From Phytoactinopolyspora alkaliphila (GTDB taxonomy: Bacteria; Actinomycetota; Actinomycetes; Jiangellales; Jiangellaceae): 64,000 bases of DNA. The first letter of the stretch is position 1, and each line of letters opens with the position of its first letter. The DNA lies in the NCBI RefSeq assembly GCF_010550695.1, contig NZ_JAAGOB010000012.1, positions 13,844 through 77,843 on the forward strand, written 5' to 3'. Positions 24,921 to 34,652 of the stretch are shown piece after piece. The translations under genes and the position numbers were made by a program. Below the pieces are notes generated by a model, which worked only from the letters and a program-made list of their open reading frames with translations, did not search any database and was not told where the DNA came from.

Positions 24921-25676
24921 GTGGGCGGTATGCATCATCCGCGACGTCGGCCCGCCGCTCTGCCGGCAGCATTCTTCACGCTCGTCCTGCTCGTCGGGGG
25001 CTGTGGCGACGAGGAGCCTGCCGGCCCCGGTGTGGGCGAAGGTAGCGAGACCTCTGCCGGCGGAGCGCCGCAGTCCCCGGACACCGGTGCTCCCGGCTCC
25101 GAGACCGCCCAAGGCGACGACGGTGGGGGAGACGAGAGCGCCGAAGGTGGCACGGACGACGAGACCTCGGACGACGAGACCTCGGACGACGGCCGCGGCG
25201 ACGAGAGTGGTCAGGACGGCGAGGAGTCCGGCGAGGCTGGTGCGGCAGCCGGCGTGACACCGAGCCCGGGCGTAGTCGGCGAGGTGCCGGCCAGGTGCCC
25301 CGAGGAAGTGGTCGCGGTGGGAGAGCGCATCACCGCGGACTACGAGCACGTCGAGATGCCGCCCGGGGACCAGCTTGCGATTCTCACCTGCGACTGGCGG
25401 GACTCGGGCAACACCATCGCCAGTGTCGAAGTGAGCTTCTCGCAGCGGATCTACGGCACCGACCTGGCCGATGTGGAAGGTGCGGAACCGGTGACGATCG
25501 CCGGCGTGGACGGCTACGTCCTGGACTCGGGCGAGCGCAAGGTCACCGCCACCATGTTCCAGTTCCACGCTGAGGGCCTGTACATCACAGGTGGATCGAT
25601 TGAGGTCGCCGACGTCGAGCAGGGTGACGTGCTGGCGCTGGCCGAAGCGGCCATCGAGTTCGTCACGTCACGGTGA
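24921..25676 (+). CDS. Putative lipoprotein with an acidic low-complexity linker
   Basis: Signal peptide with a lipobox-like LLVGGC, then a long D/E/G/S-rich region, then a roughly 130-aa C-terminal domain. No recognisable catalytic motif. Confidence 0.55.
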   Translation: MGGMHHPRRRPAALPAAFFTLVLLVGGCGDEEPAGPGVGEGSETSAGGAPQSPDTGAPGSETAQGDDGGGDESAEGGTDDETSDDETSDDGRGDESGQDGEESGEAGAAAGVTPSPGVVGEVPARCPEEVVAVGERITADYEHVEMPPGDQLAILTCDWRDSGNTIASVEVSFSQRIYGTDLADVEGAEPVTIAGVDGYVLDSGERKVTATMFQFHAEGLYITGGSIEVADVEQGDVLALAEAAIEFVTSR

Positions 25677-25701
25677 ACGCGACCGTCGTCGGCCCTCGGA
25701 G

Positions 25702-25752
25702 GCCACAGGCCCTTGCAGGCCACAGGTCCTTGCAGGCCACAGGTCCTTGCAG
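25702..25752. repeat. 17-bp tandem repeat x3 (GCCACAGGYCCTTGCAG) between convergent genes
   Basis: Three contiguous copies are seen at 25702-25718, 25719-25735 and 25736-25752. Immediately downstream is a GC hairpin CCCGGCAGGCTGCCGGG (25765-25781). Confidence 0.85.
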
Positions 25753-25801
25753 GCCTCCGTGCCCCCCGGCAGGCTGCCGGGCCGCCGGCACACCGGCCGC
25801 A

Positions 25802-28800
25802 TCAGTCGGCGTGGTGGCCCTTCGGCCGGCGCGCCCGTGCGCCACGGCTGGGCTGGTCGAACGCCTTGTCGGTGATCGAGTTGATCGCGTCCTCGATGCC
25901 GCCCACGCGATCTGCGAGCAGTCCCACGGCACCGACCGCCCGGCTCATCGGGTCCTCGTCGTCCCCGCCCAGGGCTTTGGCCCGCAGATAGGCCGACTTC
26001 ACCTCCGCCCATCGCTCGGCCTGCTCGGTGGTGAGCCGTCCACGCAGCTCCGCCAGCTTGAGTAGATTCGCCTCCGCGCCGGCGGTCAAGGTCTGTGCCT
26101 CGCCCACATAGTGGTCGTCGACCAGCGCCTCGAGCTCGTCGTCGTTCATCACCGCCACCACCCGGCCGGCCAGGGCGTTCATGTTGCGGTAGGAGCCCTG
26201 CAGCTGGAACGGCGGCTCGGTCCGCGATGCGTCGGTCTGGGCGGCCGAGGCGATGTAAGCCTGGTTGTTCGCCAGCACCACCTCCTGAACCCGGATCAAT
26301 TTACGCAGCACCGTGAGGATCTGGTCGAGCTCCACCGAGGAGTAGGGATGGACGAGCTGATCGCGCTGGGCGTTCTGGTCGCCGCGGGCAAGGCGCACCA
26401 GGAGGTCGACGTCGGCGCGCTCACGCGTGGACACGGGCGCGAGCACCGAGTTCGCGGTGAGGGAGTTCTCGATGTAGCTCAGTGCGAAGAGCTCGTCGCG
26501 GCCGGAGAGGACGTCACCGAGGTTCCATACGTCGGCGCGGTTGGCCAGCATGTCCGGCACCCGGAAACGCTGCCCTTGCTCGGTGTACGGGTTGCCGGCC
26601 ATGCACACGGCGAACCGCTTGCCGCGCAGGTCGTAGGTGCGCGTACGCCCGTTCCACACGCCCTCCATCCGGCGCTGGGCATCGCACATGGAGATGAACT
26701 TCTGCAGCAGCTCCGGATTGGTGTGCTGGATGTCGTCGAGATAGAGCAGGACGTTGTTGCCCATCTCCAGCGCGAAGTTGATCTTCTCGACCTCTTGCCG
26801 TGCCGTCGCGTTCGGCGCCTCCGCTGGATCCACCGAGGTGACCGCGTGCCCGAGCGCTGGCCCGTTCACTTTGACGAATACCAGCCCCAGGCGGCTGGCG
26901 ACGTACTCCATCAACGTCGTCTTGCCGTAGCCGGGCGGCGAGATCAGTAGCAGCAGTCCACTCTGGTCGACGCGCCTGGACTCGCCCGTGGCGCCGAGTT
27001 GCTTGGCCAGGTTGTCGCCGATCAGCGGCAGGTAGACCTCGTCGAGGAGACGGTTGCGGACGAAGCCGCTCATCACCTGCGGCTTGTACTCGTCCAGCCG
27101 GAGGACGTCGCGCTGGCGGGCGACGAGTTCGCTGCGCTGGCGCTGGTAGGCCCGGTAGGCCGGTACCCGCTCCAAGCGGAAGCGACGCGTGCGGGACAGC
27201 ACCTCGTCCAGCCGGACGCGCAGACTGCGTTCGGCGATCCGCGGGTGGGTTCCGAGTAGCCCGGTGACTGTGCTGGTCAGTGCCGCCGAGGAGTCGTACC
27301 GCGTGAGCGCGGTGCCGCACAACTCGATAGCGACGGCCTCGGGAAGATCGGAGGCCTCGAATGCCGAGGGTTCCCGCGAACGACGCTCCCCGCCGCCCGG
27401 CTCGGTGTCGGCGGTGGCCGTCATGAAGGAGCTCAGCCACGCCGTGGCGAGCTGATGCCGGGCGGCCAGATCGGATTCGAGGGCACGCAGGTCCTCTTCG
27501 AACGCCTGGCGCGATCCGGCACCCGAGCGGCGGCTCAGCGAGCGGTGGAACGAGTCGAGAAGCTTCTTCGCGCCGGCGTGAGCGACGAATCCGGCCGAGG
27601 CGTCAGCGAGTTCCTCGAACAGGTACTCGCCGGCCTGGGAGGCGTCGTCGCCGGCCACCTGTGCGGAGAGGCCCGCGTCGTGATGGAACGCGGCGATAGC
27701 CTCCCTGAGCTCGTCGCAGAGCGAGTCGACCGCGTCGGACCGGTGGAAGTTGAAGGCCGACCGGGCCTTGTGCAGCGACGCGGCCCGCGTGGACCACGAG
27801 GATCTGGCTTGTTGGTCCGCTCCGAAGGCCCAGAACAGCTGTGCCGCGCTCCGCGCGGCCGGTGTGTACCGCAGCAAGTCGGCGGCCGTGTACATCCGCA
27901 GGAGCACGTCGAGGATGGCAGCGGCGTCGTGATCGTGCACGCCGCGTTCGTAACCCTCGTCGTATCGGCTCTCCGCGACCTCACGCACCAGCCGCAGCAG
28001 CCCGTTCTCGGCGATGGCCGCTTCATGGAGGCGCTCGAGGGTGAGGCCGTTGCGCTCCTGAGCGTCGGCGAGGATCGACGCCGCGAGGTATTCGGCGCGG
28101 TACACGTCGGGCGCTTCGGAGACGAGCAACTGATCCCAGAACGGGCGGGTCTTCTCGAACTCGGGATCGTCGACGGGGGCGTGGAAGTCGGTCCCGGTGA
28201 CGGTGAAGGTCATCCGGCCGTCGTGGGGGACCAGGGTCAAGTCGATCGCTTGCGTGTTGACCGCGAACCGGTGCTGGCCGAAGCGGATCGTCTCGCCGCC
28301 GTCGTCGTACAGGTCGATGCGGTCTCGCAGTGCCCGGCCGGCCTCCTGCTGCGCGGCCTTGATCCGGCCGTCGAGCTCCTCTGCTCGGACCTGGTCGCCG
28401 AGCTCGCGGAGCTCGGTGGCGACTTTCCGGAGCCTCGCGACCATCGCGTCGGAGGCGAAGTACGTGTTGACCTCGTCGACCGAGCCGAGAGAGGTGACAC
28501 GCCGCTGCACGTTGGTGAGGATGCGCTCGGCCGAGTCGGTGAGACGGTCGGCCCGTCGGGTGCGCTCGTCGACGAGCGCCTGCTTGCGCGCGGAGAACGC
28601 CTCGTAGACGTCTTCCCGCTTGGTCTCGAGCTCAGCCAGGAAGTCGTCGAATTCGGTGAAGCGGGCCTCGAGGTTCTCCAGCTGCAGCAGCAGCCGGCCG
28701 AGCTGATCGTCGCACGCGTCGGGGGTGTTCGCCACCGCCAGAGCACCGGTGATCGCCTGTCCGAGCAGCGCGAACTCAGCGGCGAACTCCGCCCGTCCCT

Positions 28801-30988
28801 CGGTAGCGAGCAGGTCGCGCCGGCGGCCCTCGAGTGTGGCTCGGGCCCGGTTCAGCGCGCCGAGCACCTCGCCGATCCGCTCGAGAATGGCAGTGCGCAT
28901 GGTGGCGTCGGCGATGTCCAAGGATCCGATGACGTCGGTCACCGTCTCCAGCGCCTGGGACTGCTCGGCCAGCCGGTCGGCCACCTCGGTGGCGTCGGCG
29001 ACCGTGGGAATCACCGCCGCCTCGGCGGTGAGCCGGTCCACATCCTCGTGATAGCTGAGGAAGGCGTCCTCGCGTTGCAGGAACTCCACGGCCCGCTCGG
29101 CCGCGGAGGCGAGCTCGTCCTCAAGGGTCCGGTCCAGCTCGTCCAGCCGGTCCGCGTCGACGTAGCGCATGTCGCGCAGCGTCACCACGTGCCCCTTGGA
29201 CCGCCGGAGCTCGGCGAGCTGGGTCACCCACGCCTCAGCGGAGCGCGGAGCCTCGCCACGTACCCGCCGCACCAGGGACTGGATGCTCTGCGCCGTTTCT
29301 TCCACGGCCGCCGTGGACTGAGCGATCAGCGCCTGGACGTTCTCGAACTCGTCCAGAACCTGTTCCGCGGTGGTCCTGATCTCCGCCAGTGGCGTGCGTA
29401 GATCTGAGAGGTCACGATCCCCGAGCCAGTGATAGCTGTCGAAGGCGCGGGCGCAGGCGGCGATGATCGCCTCGAACACCGCGGTGGACGGTGCCATCTC
29501 GCTGATCATCCGGGTCACGGACAGGCAGTCGGAGATACCCCGGACGAGCTCGGCGTTGCCGACCCGCTCGAGGGGGCCGGTTCCCACGGGCTGGGCGGCC
29601 GCGTAGACGTCGGACTGGAACGGCGTCTGCCACACCTGCACTGGGTGGACCCGCGTTGGTTCCTCGGACGTGGCGCGCAGGATCACCAGCGTGCCGTCGT
29701 CGAAGAGCGAGTATCCGTGGCAGGGGATCGGGGTGGCCACGTCCTTGCGGATCACGTTGTAGGGCAGGAGCAGCGAGCGGCCCTCTTCGCGGGCATGGAA
29801 GACGTACAGAACGTCCTCGCCGTTGGGCGAGCGGATCGTGCGCTTGAACTCCAGGTCGGTGACGTCGGCATCGAAGGTCCGGTACTCGCCGGTGGCAAGG
29901 TAGTAGCCATCCGGGAAGATGATGCCGTGATCCTCGGGTAGCTGCAGGCAGGCCTGTCCGATGCCGTCGAGGCGGACGACCTGGGTGGTCCTGGTGTTGA
30001 AGACGAGGTGGCGCCACGTGGTCTCGTTGTAGGGCCGGATCCGGAGCAGGATGAGCGAGCCCAGACGGGCGTAGTGCACGTCGGCGTCGGCGAGACTCTG
30101 CAGTGCCTCGTCCACCGGCTCACGGTAGATGCCCGCGCCCGACTCGGTGTTGTTCTCCACCTTGATGGTGAGCTCGCCGCCAGTGGTCTCCACGAAGACG
30201 GCGTCCTCGATCGAGATGTGCGGGTACCGTCCCGGGACGTGGTTCTCCCGGGTGGTCTCGATCCACTCGAAGTCGTGCGATGGCGGGAAGGTGTGGTCAC
30301 GGTCGCCGCGGTTGTCCTGGTAGGCGAGCGTCCCGTCCGGTCCGGTCCGCCAGCGCAGCACTCGGGTGTCGTCGATACTGGGCCCGGTCTGGAAGACCGC
30401 GAGGAGCTTGTCCTCGGTCCGGCGGAGCTGAAGAAGGCGAGTCTGCCGGAAGTACCGGTACATGTCCGCGAACTCGCGCTGGAACCGGTCGCCTTCCAGC
30501 AGCCCGGGCAGCTCGTCCAGATCGGCGTCGTCGAAGCGGAAGGAGCCCGTAGCGGCCTCATCGCCTGCACCGGCTGCCGTGTCGCCCGCGGCTCGCGCGA
30601 ACCGGTGCAGCGAGAAGACGTCGGAGATCTTGGTCTCCGGCTTCATGCCGATGAACACGTTGTAGCCGAAGAGCATCAACCCGCCGGCGCCGGCGTTGCC
30701 GTTTCCGTCCACTTCCTGTGGGGACCCCATGCTGAGTGAGACGATGTCCCGCGGCACGCAATTGTGCTCGGTGCGGATCCGTTCAGTGCCGATCAGCTCG
30801 AGCTGGGCTCCACCGAAGACGTCCAGGCGCTGGACATTGAGCCGCTCGGCCCGGGCAGCGAGTTCTCCGGCCTGTTCCCGCAGCCGGGAACGGAGCACCT
30901 CGTAGGTGCCGGCTTCCAGGCCGGGGTGGTCGTCGTTCTCGGTGCGCTCGGAGCCGGCCGGCGGGGCTTCGGTCGTGGTCTCGGACAC
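25802..30988 (-). CDS. Giant 1728-aa protein with a C-terminal AAA+ (AAA_5-like) ATPase module, co-operonic with flotillin/NfeD; function unknown
   Basis: A single uninterrupted ORF whose start lies 7 nt after the flotillin stop. Walker A LLISPPGYGKTT and Walker B VLLYLDDIQH lie about 380-300 aa from the C-terminus, followed by a sensor-like GNPYTEQGQRFRVPDMLANRADVW segment. The N-terminal roughly 500 aa look beta-rich; the middle roughly 800 aa are alpha-helical with charged repeats. Confidence 0.8.
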   Translation of the reverse strand: MSETTTEAPPAGSERTENDDHPGLEAGTYEVLRSRLREQAGELAARAERLNVQRLDVFGGAQLELIGTERIRTEHNCVPRDIVSLSMGSPQEVDGNGNAGAGGLMLFGYNVFIGMKPETKISDVFSLHRFARAAGDTAAGAGDEAATGSFRFDDADLDELPGLLEGDRFQREFADMYRYFRQTRLLQLRRTEDKLLAVFQTGPSIDDTRVLRWRTGPDGTLAYQDNRGDRDHTFPPSHDFEWIETTRENHVPGRYPHISIEDAVFVETTGGELTIKVENNTESGAGIYREPVDEALQSLADADVHYARLGSLILLRIRPYNETTWRHLVFNTRTTQVVRLDGIGQACLQLPEDHGIIFPDGYYLATGEYRTFDADVTDLEFKRTIRSPNGEDVLYVFHAREEGRSLLLPYNVIRKDVATPIPCHGYSLFDDGTLVILRATSEEPTRVHPVQVWQTPFQSDVYAAAQPVGTGPLERVGNAELVRGISDCLSVTRMISEMAPSTAVFEAIIAACARAFDSYHWLGDRDLSDLRTPLAEIRTTAEQVLDEFENVQALIAQSTAAVEETAQSIQSLVRRVRGEAPRSAEAWVTQLAELRRSKGHVVTLRDMRYVDADRLDELDRTLEDELASAAERAVEFLQREDAFLSYHEDVDRLTAEAAVIPTVADATEVADRLAEQSQALETVTDVIGSLDIADATMRTAILERIGEVLGALNRARATLEGRRRDLLATEGRAEFAAEFALLGQAITGALAVANTPDACDDQLGRLLLQLENLEARFTEFDDFLAELETKREDVYEAFSARKQALVDERTRRADRLTDSAERILTNVQRRVTSLGSVDEVNTYFASDAMVARLRKVATELRELGDQVRAEELDGRIKAAQQEAGRALRDRIDLYDDGGETIRFGQHRFAVNTQAIDLTLVPHDGRMTFTVTGTDFHAPVDDPEFEKTRPFWDQLLVSEAPDVYRAEYLAASILADAQERNGLTLERLHEAAIAENGLLRLVREVAESRYDEGYERGVHDHDAAAILDVLLRMYTAADLLRYTPAARSAAQLFWAFGADQQARSSWSTRAASLHKARSAFNFHRSDAVDSLCDELREAIAAFHHDAGLSAQVAGDDASQAGEYLFEELADASAGFVAHAGAKKLLDSFHRSLSRRSGAGSRQAFEEDLRALESDLAARHQLATAWLSSFMTATADTEPGGGERRSREPSAFEASDLPEAVAIELCGTALTRYDSSAALTSTVTGLLGTHPRIAERSLRVRLDEVLSRTRRFRLERVPAYRAYQRQRSELVARQRDVLRLDEYKPQVMSGFVRNRLLDEVYLPLIGDNLAKQLGATGESRRVDQSGLLLLISPPGYGKTTLMEYVASRLGLVFVKVNGPALGHAVTSVDPAEAPNATARQEVEKINFALEMGNNVLLYLDDIQHTNPELLQKFISMCDAQRRMEGVWNGRTRTYDLRGKRFAVCMAGNPYTEQGQRFRVPDMLANRADVWNLGDVLSGRDELFALSYIENSLTANSVLAPVSTRERADVDLLVRLARGDQNAQRDQLVHPYSSVELDQILTVLRKLIRVQEVVLANNQAYIASAAQTDASRTEPPFQLQGSYRNMNALAGRVVAVMNDDELEALVDDHYVGEAQTLTAGAEANLLKLAELRGRLTTEQAERWAEVKSAYLRAKALGGDDEDPMSRAVGAVGLLADRVGGIEDAINSITDKAFDQPSRGARARRPKGHHAD

Positions 30989-30995
30989 GCCGGTG

Positions 30996-33005
30996 TTACT
31001 GCTTCGCGCCGGTCAGAGCGGCCACGGGCTGGTCGGCGAAGCCCAGACTGCGCGCCGTGTCGAGCAGGCCCTGCAGCTTCGCCGTGTTCGGCCCGCCCTT
31101 GCCGATCAGCTGCATGAGCAGCGCGGAGACGGTGAGATTCTTCAGGTCCTCGGTGTCGAAGGAGCCGAGCAGCCCGGTGATGTCGTCGACGAAGCTCGAC
31201 GAGCCGTTCAACCAGGGCTTGGCGAGCGTGCTGACCACCTCCGAGTTGCCGACGAACCCGTCCACGCCCTTGCCGAGGGAGATCGAGCTCATCAGCCGGT
31301 CGAAGAAGACGCTCTCGCCGCCGACGATGCTGATGTCGGCCTGCTCCAGACCCGTGGCCAGAACACTGGCCTGGGCCTCGGCGACGTCCTTCTGGACGTT
31401 GAGGGAAGCGAGCCTGACGTCCTTCTCCATCTCCAGCCGCAGCCGGAACTCCTCGTGCTCCCGGCTCGCGTCATCCAGCGCCGCCATCGCGGCCGCCTTC
31501 TCGGTGAGACCTTCCGCCTCGCCCTTGAGCTTCTCCCGGATCGCCTCGGCCTCGACGAGTGCCTTCTCCCGCGCGGCGGACGCCTCGGCCCGGCCGACCT
31601 TCTCGATGACCTCGGCGTCGCGCTCGCGGACCTGGACGTCGGCCAAGCCTGCAGCGGCGGCCTCGGCTTGAGTTCCTTCGGCGAGGCGGATCTTGGCTTG
31701 CGCGTCCAGCTCTGCCGCCTGCTGGCGGGCATCGGCGAGCACCAGCTCTTCCTGGGCCTTGTGCTTGGCGGCCTGTTCGGCGGCCTCCGCGGCCTTGATG
31801 TCCTTGACCAGGTTCTCCTGGGCTTCCGCCTCGGCCGTGATGACTCGGGCCTCGCGCTCCCGCTCCGCTTCCTCGACCGTGCGGACTCGCTTGATGTTCT
31901 CTTCCTGCTCGGCGACGGTCTTGTCGACCGCGACGCGTTCCCGCACGATCTCGGCGACCGCGCGCTTCTCGGTCTCGACCTCCTTCGCCATCTCGATGGT
32001 GGCGAGCTCGGTTTCCCGGTCCCGCGCCACGACCTCGAGCATGCGGTCCTTCTCGATCTTCTCCGTCTCGACCGCGACGACACGCTGCCGGTTCAGTTCG
32101 GCCACCGCGATCTCGCGGGCCTTGTTCTCGTTCTGCACACCGATCTGCTCGTCGGTGCGCAGGTTCGCGGCCTCGGCCTTGAACCGCTCCTCCGCCCGGA
32201 CACGTGCCGTCTCAGCCTCTTCACGCGCCCGCAGAGTATCGACCTCACGCTGCTGGGTCGCCTCGGCGTCGGCCTGGCGGCGCTCCAGCTCGAGGATCGC
32301 CTCACGCGCGTCGACGTTCTGGCGGGTGATCTCCTTCTCGCGGTTGCGCTCGTAGTCGTTGGTGCGGATGTGCTCCAGCGCGGTGAGTTCGGTGATCTTC
32401 CGGATGCCCTGGGCGTCCAGGATGTTCTGGCCGTCGAGCTGGGACATCGGTGTCTGCTCGAGGAAGTCGATCGCGGCGTCCTCGAGGCTGTAACCGTTGA
32501 GGTCGGTGCCGATGACCCGGATGATCTGGTCACGGAACTCGTCACGCTTGGTGTAGAGGTCGACGAAGTCCATGTGCTTGCCGACGGTCTTCAGCGCCTC
32601 GGAGAACTTGGCGTTGAACAGCTCCTGCAGAGTGTTCTGATCGCTGGCGCGCGCGGTGCCGATGGCCTGGGCGACCTTCACGACGTCTTCGACGGTCTTG
32701 TTGACCCGGACGAAGAAGGTGATCCTGATGTCCGCCCGGATGTTGTCCTTGCAGATCAGGCCTTCGTGACCGGTCCGTTCGATGTCGATGGTCTTGACCG
32801 AGATGTCCATGAACTCGGCCTTGTGAATGATCGGCAGGACCACCGCGCCGGTGAAGGTGACGTCGACTCTCTTCACCTTCGAGATGATCAACGCCCGGCC
32901 CTGCTCGACCTTGCGGAACAGCCGGGTGATCACGAAGACCAAGCCCAGCAGCACGATGAGTATGACGGCTAGCAGCACACCGAAACCGGTGCCGAGGGTT
33001 TCCAT
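30996..33005 (-). CDS. Flotillin-like protein (SPFH/band-7 domain plus long EA-rich coiled coil), YqiK/FloT type
   Basis: 669 aa with an N-terminal TM helix and an SPFH core (RALIISKVKRVDVTFTGAVVLPIIHKAEFMDISVKTIDIER...). It is followed by about 300 aa of E/A/R/K-rich heptad repeats and a C-terminal flotillin tail. Confidence 0.9.
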   Translation of the reverse strand: METLGTGFGVLLAVILIVLLGLVFVITRLFRKVEQGRALIISKVKRVDVTFTGAVVLPIIHKAEFMDISVKTIDIERTGHEGLICKDNIRADIRITFFVRVNKTVEDVVKVAQAIGTARASDQNTLQELFNAKFSEALKTVGKHMDFVDLYTKRDEFRDQIIRVIGTDLNGYSLEDAAIDFLEQTPMSQLDGQNILDAQGIRKITELTALEHIRTNDYERNREKEITRQNVDAREAILELERRQADAEATQQREVDTLRAREEAETARVRAEERFKAEAANLRTDEQIGVQNENKAREIAVAELNRQRVVAVETEKIEKDRMLEVVARDRETELATIEMAKEVETEKRAVAEIVRERVAVDKTVAEQEENIKRVRTVEEAEREREARVITAEAEAQENLVKDIKAAEAAEQAAKHKAQEELVLADARQQAAELDAQAKIRLAEGTQAEAAAAGLADVQVRERDAEVIEKVGRAEASAAREKALVEAEAIREKLKGEAEGLTEKAAAMAALDDASREHEEFRLRLEMEKDVRLASLNVQKDVAEAQASVLATGLEQADISIVGGESVFFDRLMSSISLGKGVDGFVGNSEVVSTLAKPWLNGSSSFVDDITGLLGSFDTEDLKNLTVSALLMQLIGKGGPNTAKLQGLLDTARSLGFADQPVAALTGAKQ

Positions 33006-33051
33006 CTCGTGAGAATCCTTACGTCAAGAACGAATGGTGAGGCCGGGTGGG

Positions 33052-33684
33052 TCAGAGCCTGCCGCCGGGGTCGAGCTCGGCGGCGAACGGCGAGACCCAG
33101 AAGAACTCGCCGTCAGAGTCGTAGTCGAAGATCAGTGCGGTGCTTCCGGAGAGGAACTCGTCGTCGCCGGTCTGGCGTACGTGAATGATCGCTGTGGAGC
33201 CGTCGTCAGCGGTGACCTCCGCCTGGCCGGTCCCGTGCCCGAGGGGTGCGGTGCGGATGACACAGATCTTGCCGACGAAGTCGGAACGTGAGGATTCGCG
33301 GATCTGGGGGAGGGTGCGCCGGATGAACATCACGACGAGCGAGGTGATGACCCACGCGATCACCACCGCGAGCGCGACGGCGACGATGCCCAGCGCCACC
33401 GTGGCCGGCGTGGGAAGGTCCAGTTCGCCAAGCGCCACCGTGGCGCTGAGCGCTGCGAACCAGGCGATGGCGATGATCAATGACAACGACACGGTGACCG
33501 GCACTCCCCGCAGGCCCACCGCGGCCGCGAAGTCGGCTGCGCCGGCTTCGGCGGATTCGCCGTCGAGCATGTCGATTCCCAGCCCGCCCACAATAACGAG
33601 CACCCAGTACGCCACGACCACCAGCAGCATGAAGCTGAACACGACAGCGGGGAAGGTCAGGGCGTGGTCAATGAGGTCAGCCAT
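33052..33684 (-). CDS. NfeD-family membrane protein (short form, C-terminal OB-fold), YqiJ/NfeD2 type
   Basis: 210 aa with 3-4 N-terminal TM helices and a C-terminal beta domain (DFVGKICVIRTAPLGHGTGQAEVTADDGSTAIIHV). It sits directly upstream of the flotillin gene, the canonical NfeD-SPFH pairing. Confidence 0.8.
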   Translation of the reverse strand: MADLIDHALTFPAVVFSFMLLVVVAYWVLVIVGGLGIDMLDGESAEAGAADFAAAVGLRGVPVTVSLSLIIAIAWFAALSATVALGELDLPTPATVALGIVAVALAVVIAWVITSLVVMFIRRTLPQIRESSRSDFVGKICVIRTAPLGHGTGQAEVTADDGSTAIIHVRQTGDDEFLSGSTALIFDYDSDGEFFWVSPFAAELDPGGRL

Positions 33685-33788
33685 CGTCGAACGGGCCCCC
33701 CTTCCCGTGACTGCCGGACCGTGACTCGCCGGAGTATAGCGGTCGGCAACGTCACTGTCCTGCGGGCGTCCGCACTCCGGCGGAGACG

Positions 33789-34652
33789 TCAGGTCGGAGA
33801 GCGGTGGGCGCTGGATGACTCGTCGCTGGGAGACGGAGAACGCAGGACATCCGGAGCAGAGCCGGCCCGGTGACGTTCCCCGTCACCTGTCGCGTCACCG
33901 TCCGAATCGCCGCCTGCGCCGGTTTCCTGACGTCCTTTCGCCTCGGCTCGGATCAGCAGGACGAATCCGACGACACCGACGGTGGCGAAGATGAACCACT
34001 GAACGGCGTAGGACAGGTGCGGACCACTGTCGGCCTCCGGCGGCGGGATGGCGGTGAAGCCTTCCTGGACCGGAGGCGTCGCTTCGGCCCAAGCCGGGTA
34101 CACGGGATACGGCATCGCCTCGGCGATCTCGGCGACGTTGACCGCGCGGACCGTCCCCTGGCCGAGCGTGCCCCCGGCGTCCCGATGGTCCTCGGTGACC
34201 CGGAGGCGCACGACGACGTCGACCTCGCCGGACGGTGGGGGCGGCACATCCGGGTTGTCGTCGGCGGCCGGGACGAACCCGCGGTCGACGAGAAGTGCAG
34301 TGCCGTCAGCTGTGACCAGCGGAGTAACGACGTGCACGCCGCGTTGACCGCCAAGAGGCCGCAGCCGGAGAAACAGCTCGTTGCTGGGATCGTAGCGGCC
34401 TCTGACCTCGGTGCGTCGCCACTGATCGGCGGTGTCGAAGCTCTCACCCGGCGCGAGAATCGCGTCCAGCGGTACGGGTGGCGCGTCGGCGTTGGCCTCG
34501 ATCACGGCGTTGCGTTCGGAGCGCCCGTCGGCGCGGTCGAGCTGCCACATGCCGAGCCGGAGGCAGACCAGGACGAGCAAAATGCCGGCCACCGTACGGA
34601 CCAGCCACCGCCTGCTCGCGAGGAACCTGTACACAAATCGACCGTAGACCAT
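33789..34652 (-). CDS. SURF1-family protein (cytochrome oxidase biogenesis-like), paralog 1
   Basis: 287 aa. Has an N-terminal TM helix with WQLDR, and the C-terminal SURF1 signature LSYAVQWFIFATVGVVGFV. Confidence 0.8.
   Translation of the reverse strand: MVYGRFVYRFLASRRWLVRTVAGILLVLVCLRLGMWQLDRADGRSERNAVIEANADAPPVPLDAILAPGESFDTADQWRRTEVRGRYDPSNELFLRLRPLGGQRGVHVVTPLVTADGTALLVDRGFVPAADDNPDVPPPPSGEVDVVVRLRVTEDHRDAGGTLGQGTVRAVNVAEIAEAMPYPVYPAWAEATPPVQEGFTAIPPPEADSGPHLSYAVQWFIFATVGVVGFVLLIRAEAKGRQETGAGGDSDGDATGDGERHRAGSAPDVLRSPSPSDESSSAHRSPT

Follow-up and report, generated by a model that had tools for sequence, protein, structure and literature searches.

A giant ATPase gene in a flotillin cassette

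The window analysed here is a 64,000-nucleotide stretch of DNA from Phytoactinopolyspora alkaliphila, in which positions 26500-26960 fall within the gene of a giant protein (Table 1). The protein is 100% identical to a P. alkaliphila 'AAA domain-containing protein' whose annotated start lies 23 codons later, and it is soluble and contains no predicted TM-like segments. From its N-terminus to its C-terminus, it is made up of a helix, the all-β DUF3686 domain, a long helical region that includes DUF7902, a small β domain, a further helical region, the AAA+ module, and a C-terminal helical bundle. A search for a solved fold matching the large β domain (DUF3686) found none, and the domain has no recognisable fold that hints at a bound partner. 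Relatives of the giant protein are encoded in at least 586 stretches of a one-genome-per-species collection and are found in Actinomycetota, Bacteroidota, Verrucomicrobiota, Planctomycetota, Fibrobacterota, Acidobacteriota, Pseudomonadota, and Sumerlaeia, with 44-59% identity between phyla in the ATPase region.

Table 1. Features of the giant ATPase gene and its cassette (positions in the window; aa numbering of the giant ORF for features within it)
Feature	Position (nt)	Strand	Description
Sigma-70-like promoter match	33733..33761	minus	Upstream of the small gene; weak evidence
YqiJ/NfeD-like small membrane protein	33052..33684	minus	210 aa; three hydrophobic segments and a soluble C-terminal domain
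Flotillin/YqiK-like SPFH protein	30996..33005	minus	669 aa; Band_7 E 1e-9; NCBIfam FloT match sub-threshold
Giant ORF	25802..30988	minus	1,728 aa; largest ORF over 26500-26960
DUF3686	29429..30865	minus	aa 42-520; mostly all-β; model pLDDT about 90
DUF7902	28817..29068	minus	aa 641-724, within the long helical region; Pfam E 2.1e-29; model helices
AAA+ α/β core	26519..26962	minus	aa 1343-1490; strands b1 to b5
Peptide ISPPGYGKTTLMEYV	26900-26944	minus	aa 1349-1363
Walker A / P-loop SPPGYGKT	26918..26941	minus	aa 1350-1357; Lys1356; 343/344 homologues
Strand 2-helix 2 loop GPALGHAVTSVDPAEAPN	26810..26863	minus	aa 1376-1393; conserved
Peptide VLLYLDDIQHTNPELL	26705-26752	minus	aa 1413-1428
Walker B VLLYLDDIQH	26723..26752	minus	aa 1413-1422; DDIQH in 341/344 homologues
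Pre-sensor-1 β-hairpin MEGVWNGRTRTY	26633..26668	minus	aa 1441-1452; model strands 201-205 and 208-212
Peptide GNPYTEQGQRFRVPDMLANRADVWNLGDV	26510-26596	minus	aa 1465-1493
Sensor 1 GNPYTE	26579..26596	minus	aa 1465-1470; Asn1466 at the end of strand 4
PDMLANRAD	26531..26557	minus	aa 1478-1486; helix 4 ends in Arg1484; PDMLxNR in 343/344 homologues
Lid segment EPPFQLQGSYRN	26183..26218	minus	aa 1591-1602; helical lid; GSYR in 343/344 homologues
C-terminal helical bundle	25859..26182	minus	aa 1603-1710, past the lid; model helices 376-470; conserved

The giant gene closes a conserved cassette of three genes, in which it follows the genes of a YqiJ/NfeD-like membrane protein and a YqiK-like flotillin. 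The flotillin has one N-terminal TM segment and a long helical region rich in Glu and Ala. In the window, 7 nt separate the flotillin stop codon from the GTG of the giant ORF; in Streptomyces, the two genes as called have an overlap of 4 nt. An orthologous flotillin-like gene is found directly upstream of the giant gene at 86 of 89 loci, including those of Planctomycetota, Verrucomicrobiota, Bacteroidota, and Sumerlaeia (40-78% identity), and the outer neighbours of the cassette are different in every locus. These flotillins, of about 670-730 aa, form an orthologous group of their own that accompanies the ATPase, a divergent subfamily that is often missed by Pfam. A divergent member of the giant family in Aureibacter has no flotillin neighbour, and one Streptomyces locus carries a short form that lacks both DUF3686 and flotillin.

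Pfam gives no match for the small protein of the window itself, which shows homology to the proteins encoded at the same place in the cassette in Streptomyces (E 9e-55) and Aureliella (E 2e-6). Three such positional counterparts, from three phyla, pass the YqiJ_N threshold, and one of them, homologous to the small protein of the window, also has an NfeD C-terminal match (E 0.076). The locus therefore has the layout of an NfeD/YqiJ and flotillin operon, in that the SPFH/Band_7 gene is preceded by a YqiJ-type gene on the same strand; NfeD-type genes paired with YqiK/YuaG-type SPFH genes form a known conserved operon (PMC2636767). The promoter match listed in Table 1 is the sole site in 25300-34000, compared with 0.2 expected from shuffles. 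A downstream ORF of 229 aa was considered as a member of the cassette and left out, because it has no Pfam match and is not conserved beside the cassette. The neighbourhood of the cassette in the window is housekeeping in character. Elsewhere, a PspA_IM30 gene adjoins the cassette in Hymenobacter (same strand) and in one Verrucomicrobiota genome, giving these loci a membrane-stress flavour; in the window, a tblastn search with two cassette-adjacent PspA proteins of other phyla, which is a weak test, found no PspA.

Motifs and clade of the AAA+ module

The initial annotation had read an AAA+ core from three peptides in 26500-26960, placed about 380-240 aa from the C-terminus. All three are present on the minus strand (nt 26510-26944, aa 1349-1493), at a measured distance of 379 to 235 residues. 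Its rendering of Walker A as GPPGYGKT has to be corrected to SPPGYGKT, with a Ser that is the norm of the family (343 of 344 homologues). Compared with the GxxxxGK[ST] pattern, the P-loop thus differs in its first Gly and keeps Lys1356 and Thr1357. The Walker B segment VLLYLDD (aa 1413-1419) takes the hhhhD[D/E] form on model strand 173-178, and its acidic pair is Asp-Asp (D1418, D1419) where Asp-Glu is usual; DE[IVL]QH occurs in only 2 of the 344 homologues. At sensor 1, Asn1466 follows model strand 219-225, and the absence of an Asn or Thr here, which the initial annotation had named as evidence against its reading, is not what is found, as the GNP containing N1466 is kept in 343 of the 344. 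Within the giant protein, conservation is highest in the AAA+ core, and SPPGYGKT, DDIQH, GNP, PDMLxNR, and GSYR each occur in no fewer than 341 of the 344 homologues, which come from several phyla. By its position in the model, the invariant Arg1484 is a candidate arginine finger. Arg1601, within the GSYRN of the lid, is a candidate sensor 2, and we take EPPFQLQGSYRN to resemble the G-S-x-R sensor-2 motif of MoxR proteins. The conserved GPALGHAVTSVDPAEAPN loop may line a pore or contact substrate.

The predicted structure of the AAA+ module (pLDDT 85.1) has the overall fold of an α/β core with a lid, and its elements follow the canonical order of b1, P-loop, a1, b2, a2, b3 (Walker B), a3, hairpin, b4 (sensor 1), a4 (Arg), b5, and lid. 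It had been proposed that the module belongs to the AAA_5/MoxR type, partly because the SRH arginine-finger pattern appeared to be missing. This argument holds in part: the classical two-Arg SRH is absent, but an invariant R1484 occupies the Arg-finger position, so that the classical two-Arg pattern is missing while a candidate Arg finger is present. The assignment itself is supported by a Pfam AAA_5 match above threshold, by a pre-sensor-1 hairpin in the model, and by nearest structural neighbours that belong to the group. AAA_5 scores 27.5 to 29.7 bits (cut-off 22) over profile positions 2-127 of 139, in an alignment that spans Walker A, sensor 1, and the Arg region, and precomputed annotations show it on most homologues. 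The giant protein has no match to any ABC or SMC family. The pre-sensor-1 β-hairpin is present in the model between helix 3 and strand 4, and classical AAA proteins do not have this element. At the helix-2 insert, the other structural feature suggested for inspection, no β-hairpin is predicted, and aa 1376-1393 are modelled as an ordered loop (pLDDT about 94) without strands. The closest structural neighbours are CbbQ (16.4), NorQ (15.6), midasin (13.3), and dynein (13.1), with the next families at 13.1 or below. The top Foldseek matches all come from hairpin-bearing clades, with NorQ mixed among MCM, RuvB, ClpX, and Lon. A VWA partner is typical of MoxR systems; at the loci examined, neither the giant protein nor the cassette genes contain a VWA/MIDAS domain.

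The clade assignment is not clean. It is possible that the module comes from another AAA+ clade, either classical AAA (Cdc48/FtsH/Rix7-like) or an HCLR-type unfoldase (RuvB/ClpX/Lon-like), and that its likeness to AAA_5 is superficial. The best phmmer and profile matches in the PDB are Rix7, VCP, Cdc48, and RuvB (E from 2.5e-6 to 1e-3), PF00004 (Pfam AAA) is also above threshold with a score statistically equal to that of AAA_5, and RuvB, ClpX, and Lon are among the top Foldseek matches. The missing helix-2 hairpin in the model is likewise as in HCLR, and the NGPALGH of the strand 2-helix 2 segment presumably resembles the pore-loop region of p97. RuvB profiles also match below threshold, both as RuvB_N and in NCBIfam, where RuvB P-loop matches are the only ones to the giant protein. 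The PF00004 match covers profile positions 1-72 of 131 and ends at Walker B. The PDB sequence searches, whether with the single sequence or with a 60-member profile, match classical AAA proteins or RuvB in the Walker A region only; these matches are restricted to the N-linker, Walker A, and strand 2, and the second half of the core, searched alone, matches nothing in the PDB by sequence. A classical AAA identity (FtsH/Cdc48/Vps4 clade) was rejected, given the absent two-Arg SRH and the pre-sensor-1 hairpin of the predicted structure. We therefore regard an origin in another clade as unlikely. The evidence supports the conclusion that the nucleotide-binding core encoded by 26500-26960 is part of an AAA+ module that falls in the pre-sensor-1-hairpin superclade and comes nearest to MoxR/AAA_5 proteins (CbbQ-NorQ, midasin, dynein). 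Taken narrowly, the claim of an AAA_5-flavoured AAA+ core is right but unremarkable, because domain databases already flag the core.

What the giant ATPase may do

The adjacency to flotillin in nearly every genome examined suggests that the giant protein works at the membrane and not in 'DNA repair'. Judged from gene order alone, it would most likely use ATP to remodel the flotillin scaffold or its clients. Taken as a whole, our best explanation is a MoxR-like AAA+ motor of the hairpin superclade that is encoded by the last gene of a flotillin cassette and acts on that scaffold, a reading that we hold at a probability of about 0.55. The AAA+ module would form a ring, like its structural neighbours, in which Lys1356 would bind ATP and D1418/D1419 and Asn1466 would hydrolyse it together with an Arg1484 that acts in trans. 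The strand 2-helix 2 loop and the pre-sensor-1 hairpin would face the central pore and grip a polypeptide, and the N-terminal β domain, together with the long spectrin-like helical rod, would locate the motor at the membrane, on the cytoplasmic flotillin assembly. There it could assemble, disassemble, or extract something from the flotillin scaffold, probably in the service of membrane maintenance or in response to stress. As Walker B carries DD rather than DE, fast processive hydrolysis is not assured.

This last point leaves room for a different kind of ATPase, a nucleotide-dependent switch or scaffold in which the invariant Asp-Asp Walker B gives slow, regulated hydrolysis and the nucleotide state controls the assembly of a large flotillin-associated complex. 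DDIQH is found in 341 of the 344 homologues, with the DE form in just the two mentioned above, and the Walker B of DnaA, whose hydrolysis is slow and regulated, also reads DDIQ. We consider a switch rather improbable: an Asp can still serve as general base, the sequence appears to keep a full catalytic set in its sensor 1, Arg-finger, and sensor 2 candidates, and both the pre-sensor-1 hairpin and the best structural matches, CbbQ and NorQ, both active remodelling motors, favour a motor. Equally doubtful is the idea that the gene order reflects co-regulation only and that the ATPase acts on a client other than flotillin, be it in complex maturation like MoxR or as a conflict or defence NTPase. 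MoxR proteins usually act on specific enzyme clients, the Aureibacter gene stands without flotillin, and the next genes in Hymenobacter, GmrSD_N and AAA_23, have a defence-like flavour. Set against these observations are the 86 of 89 loci with an adjacent flotillin, across several phyla and amid outer neighbours that differ everywhere, and the fact that this flotillin is one specific orthologous group. The housekeeping surroundings in the window and the PADLOC search of the giant protein, which gave no significant match and only noise at the P-loop level (E above 1e-3), also argue against a defence role.

The reading given by the database name, a DNA repair ATPase of the Rad50/SbcC/SMC kind with long coiled coils that acts on DNA, is by far the least credible. 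NCBI and Pfam do use the names 'DNA repair ATPase' and 'ATPase involved in DNA repair', and the protein does have a long helical middle region. Its NTPase fold is nevertheless AAA+; SMC_N, AAA_23, SbcC_Walker_B, ABC, and Rad50 all fail to match it in a run in which the genuine ABC proteins of the window do match. Pfam, NCBIfam, and PDB profile searches find no DNA-binding or nuclease domain, the conserved neighbours are membrane proteins and not repair genes, and a literature search turned up no paper backing the name. Similarity of coiled coils to SbcC-type COG entries is the probable origin of the name.

Relation to known systems and significance

The MoxR-class AAA_5 proteins CbbQ and NorQ (PDB 6l1q, 9qh4) are the best structural matches of the module, yet share only 14% sequence identity with it. 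In contrast to these proteins, the giant protein has DD in place of DE in Walker B, a P-loop that starts with Ser, and a model without the helix-2 β-hairpin. At about 260 aa, CbbQ and NorQ stand alone, whereas the module here follows about 1,300 residues of other domains in the same chain, and in place of a VWA/MIDAS partner of the CbbO/NorD type, its conserved partners are the flotillin and the YqiJ/NfeD-like protein. Midasin (Rea1/Mdn1) and the dynein heavy chain concatenate six AAA modules in each chain; with a single module, the giant protein would need to oligomerise. It also lacks the MIDAS domain, microtubule-binding domain, and linker of midasin and dynein; the likeness in design is only an analogy. 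McrB, the GTP-dependent AAA+ protein of McrBC restriction, belongs to the same broad hairpin-bearing AAA+ group as the module.

The YqiJ-YqiK and YuaF-FloT operons of the SPFH2 group fit the first two genes of the cassette, whose order agrees with PMC2636767. However, the classical operons lack the giant AAA+ gene, and the flotillin of the cassette is from a divergent subfamily. SPFH proteins build cage-like assemblies, as stated in a passage of PMC11920096 that cites Ma et al. 2022. The FtsH-HflK/C system resembles the arrangement proposed here in that an AAA+ ATPase is coupled to an SPFH-family membrane scaffold, a coupling that in our case is suggested by gene order. FtsH is a membrane-anchored classical-AAA protease, whereas the giant protein is soluble, has no protease domain, and is of another AAA+ clade; the SPFH partner of FtsH is HflK/C, and here it is flotillin/YqiK-like. 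Tentatively, and with somewhat less than even confidence, the cassette may be seen as a phylum-spanning machine in which a giant MoxR-like AAA+ motor is dedicated to a flotillin/NfeD scaffold, with a logic like that of FtsH-HflK/C or Vps4-ESCRT-III. Such a motor would assemble, disassemble, or unload flotillin cages in membrane maintenance or repair, and would have been hidden under the wrong label of 'DNA repair ATPase'.

For the build-up, turnover, and energy coupling of bacterial flotillin assemblies, we know of no dedicated ATPase partner. A search for literature on the giant ATPase family (DUF3686, PF12458), including links to flotillin, NfeD, or SPFH proteins, found nothing, and an ATPase partner is not mentioned in the SPFH evolution paper (PMC2636767) or in the StlP paper (PMC11920096). 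The protein of about 1,700 aa described here occurs in many hundreds of species, and its gene adjoins that of a particular flotillin subfamily in nearly all the genomes examined. If the link between the two is true, flotillin biology would gain a directly testable energy-consuming component, and a misleading annotation that has spread over thousands of database entries would be corrected.

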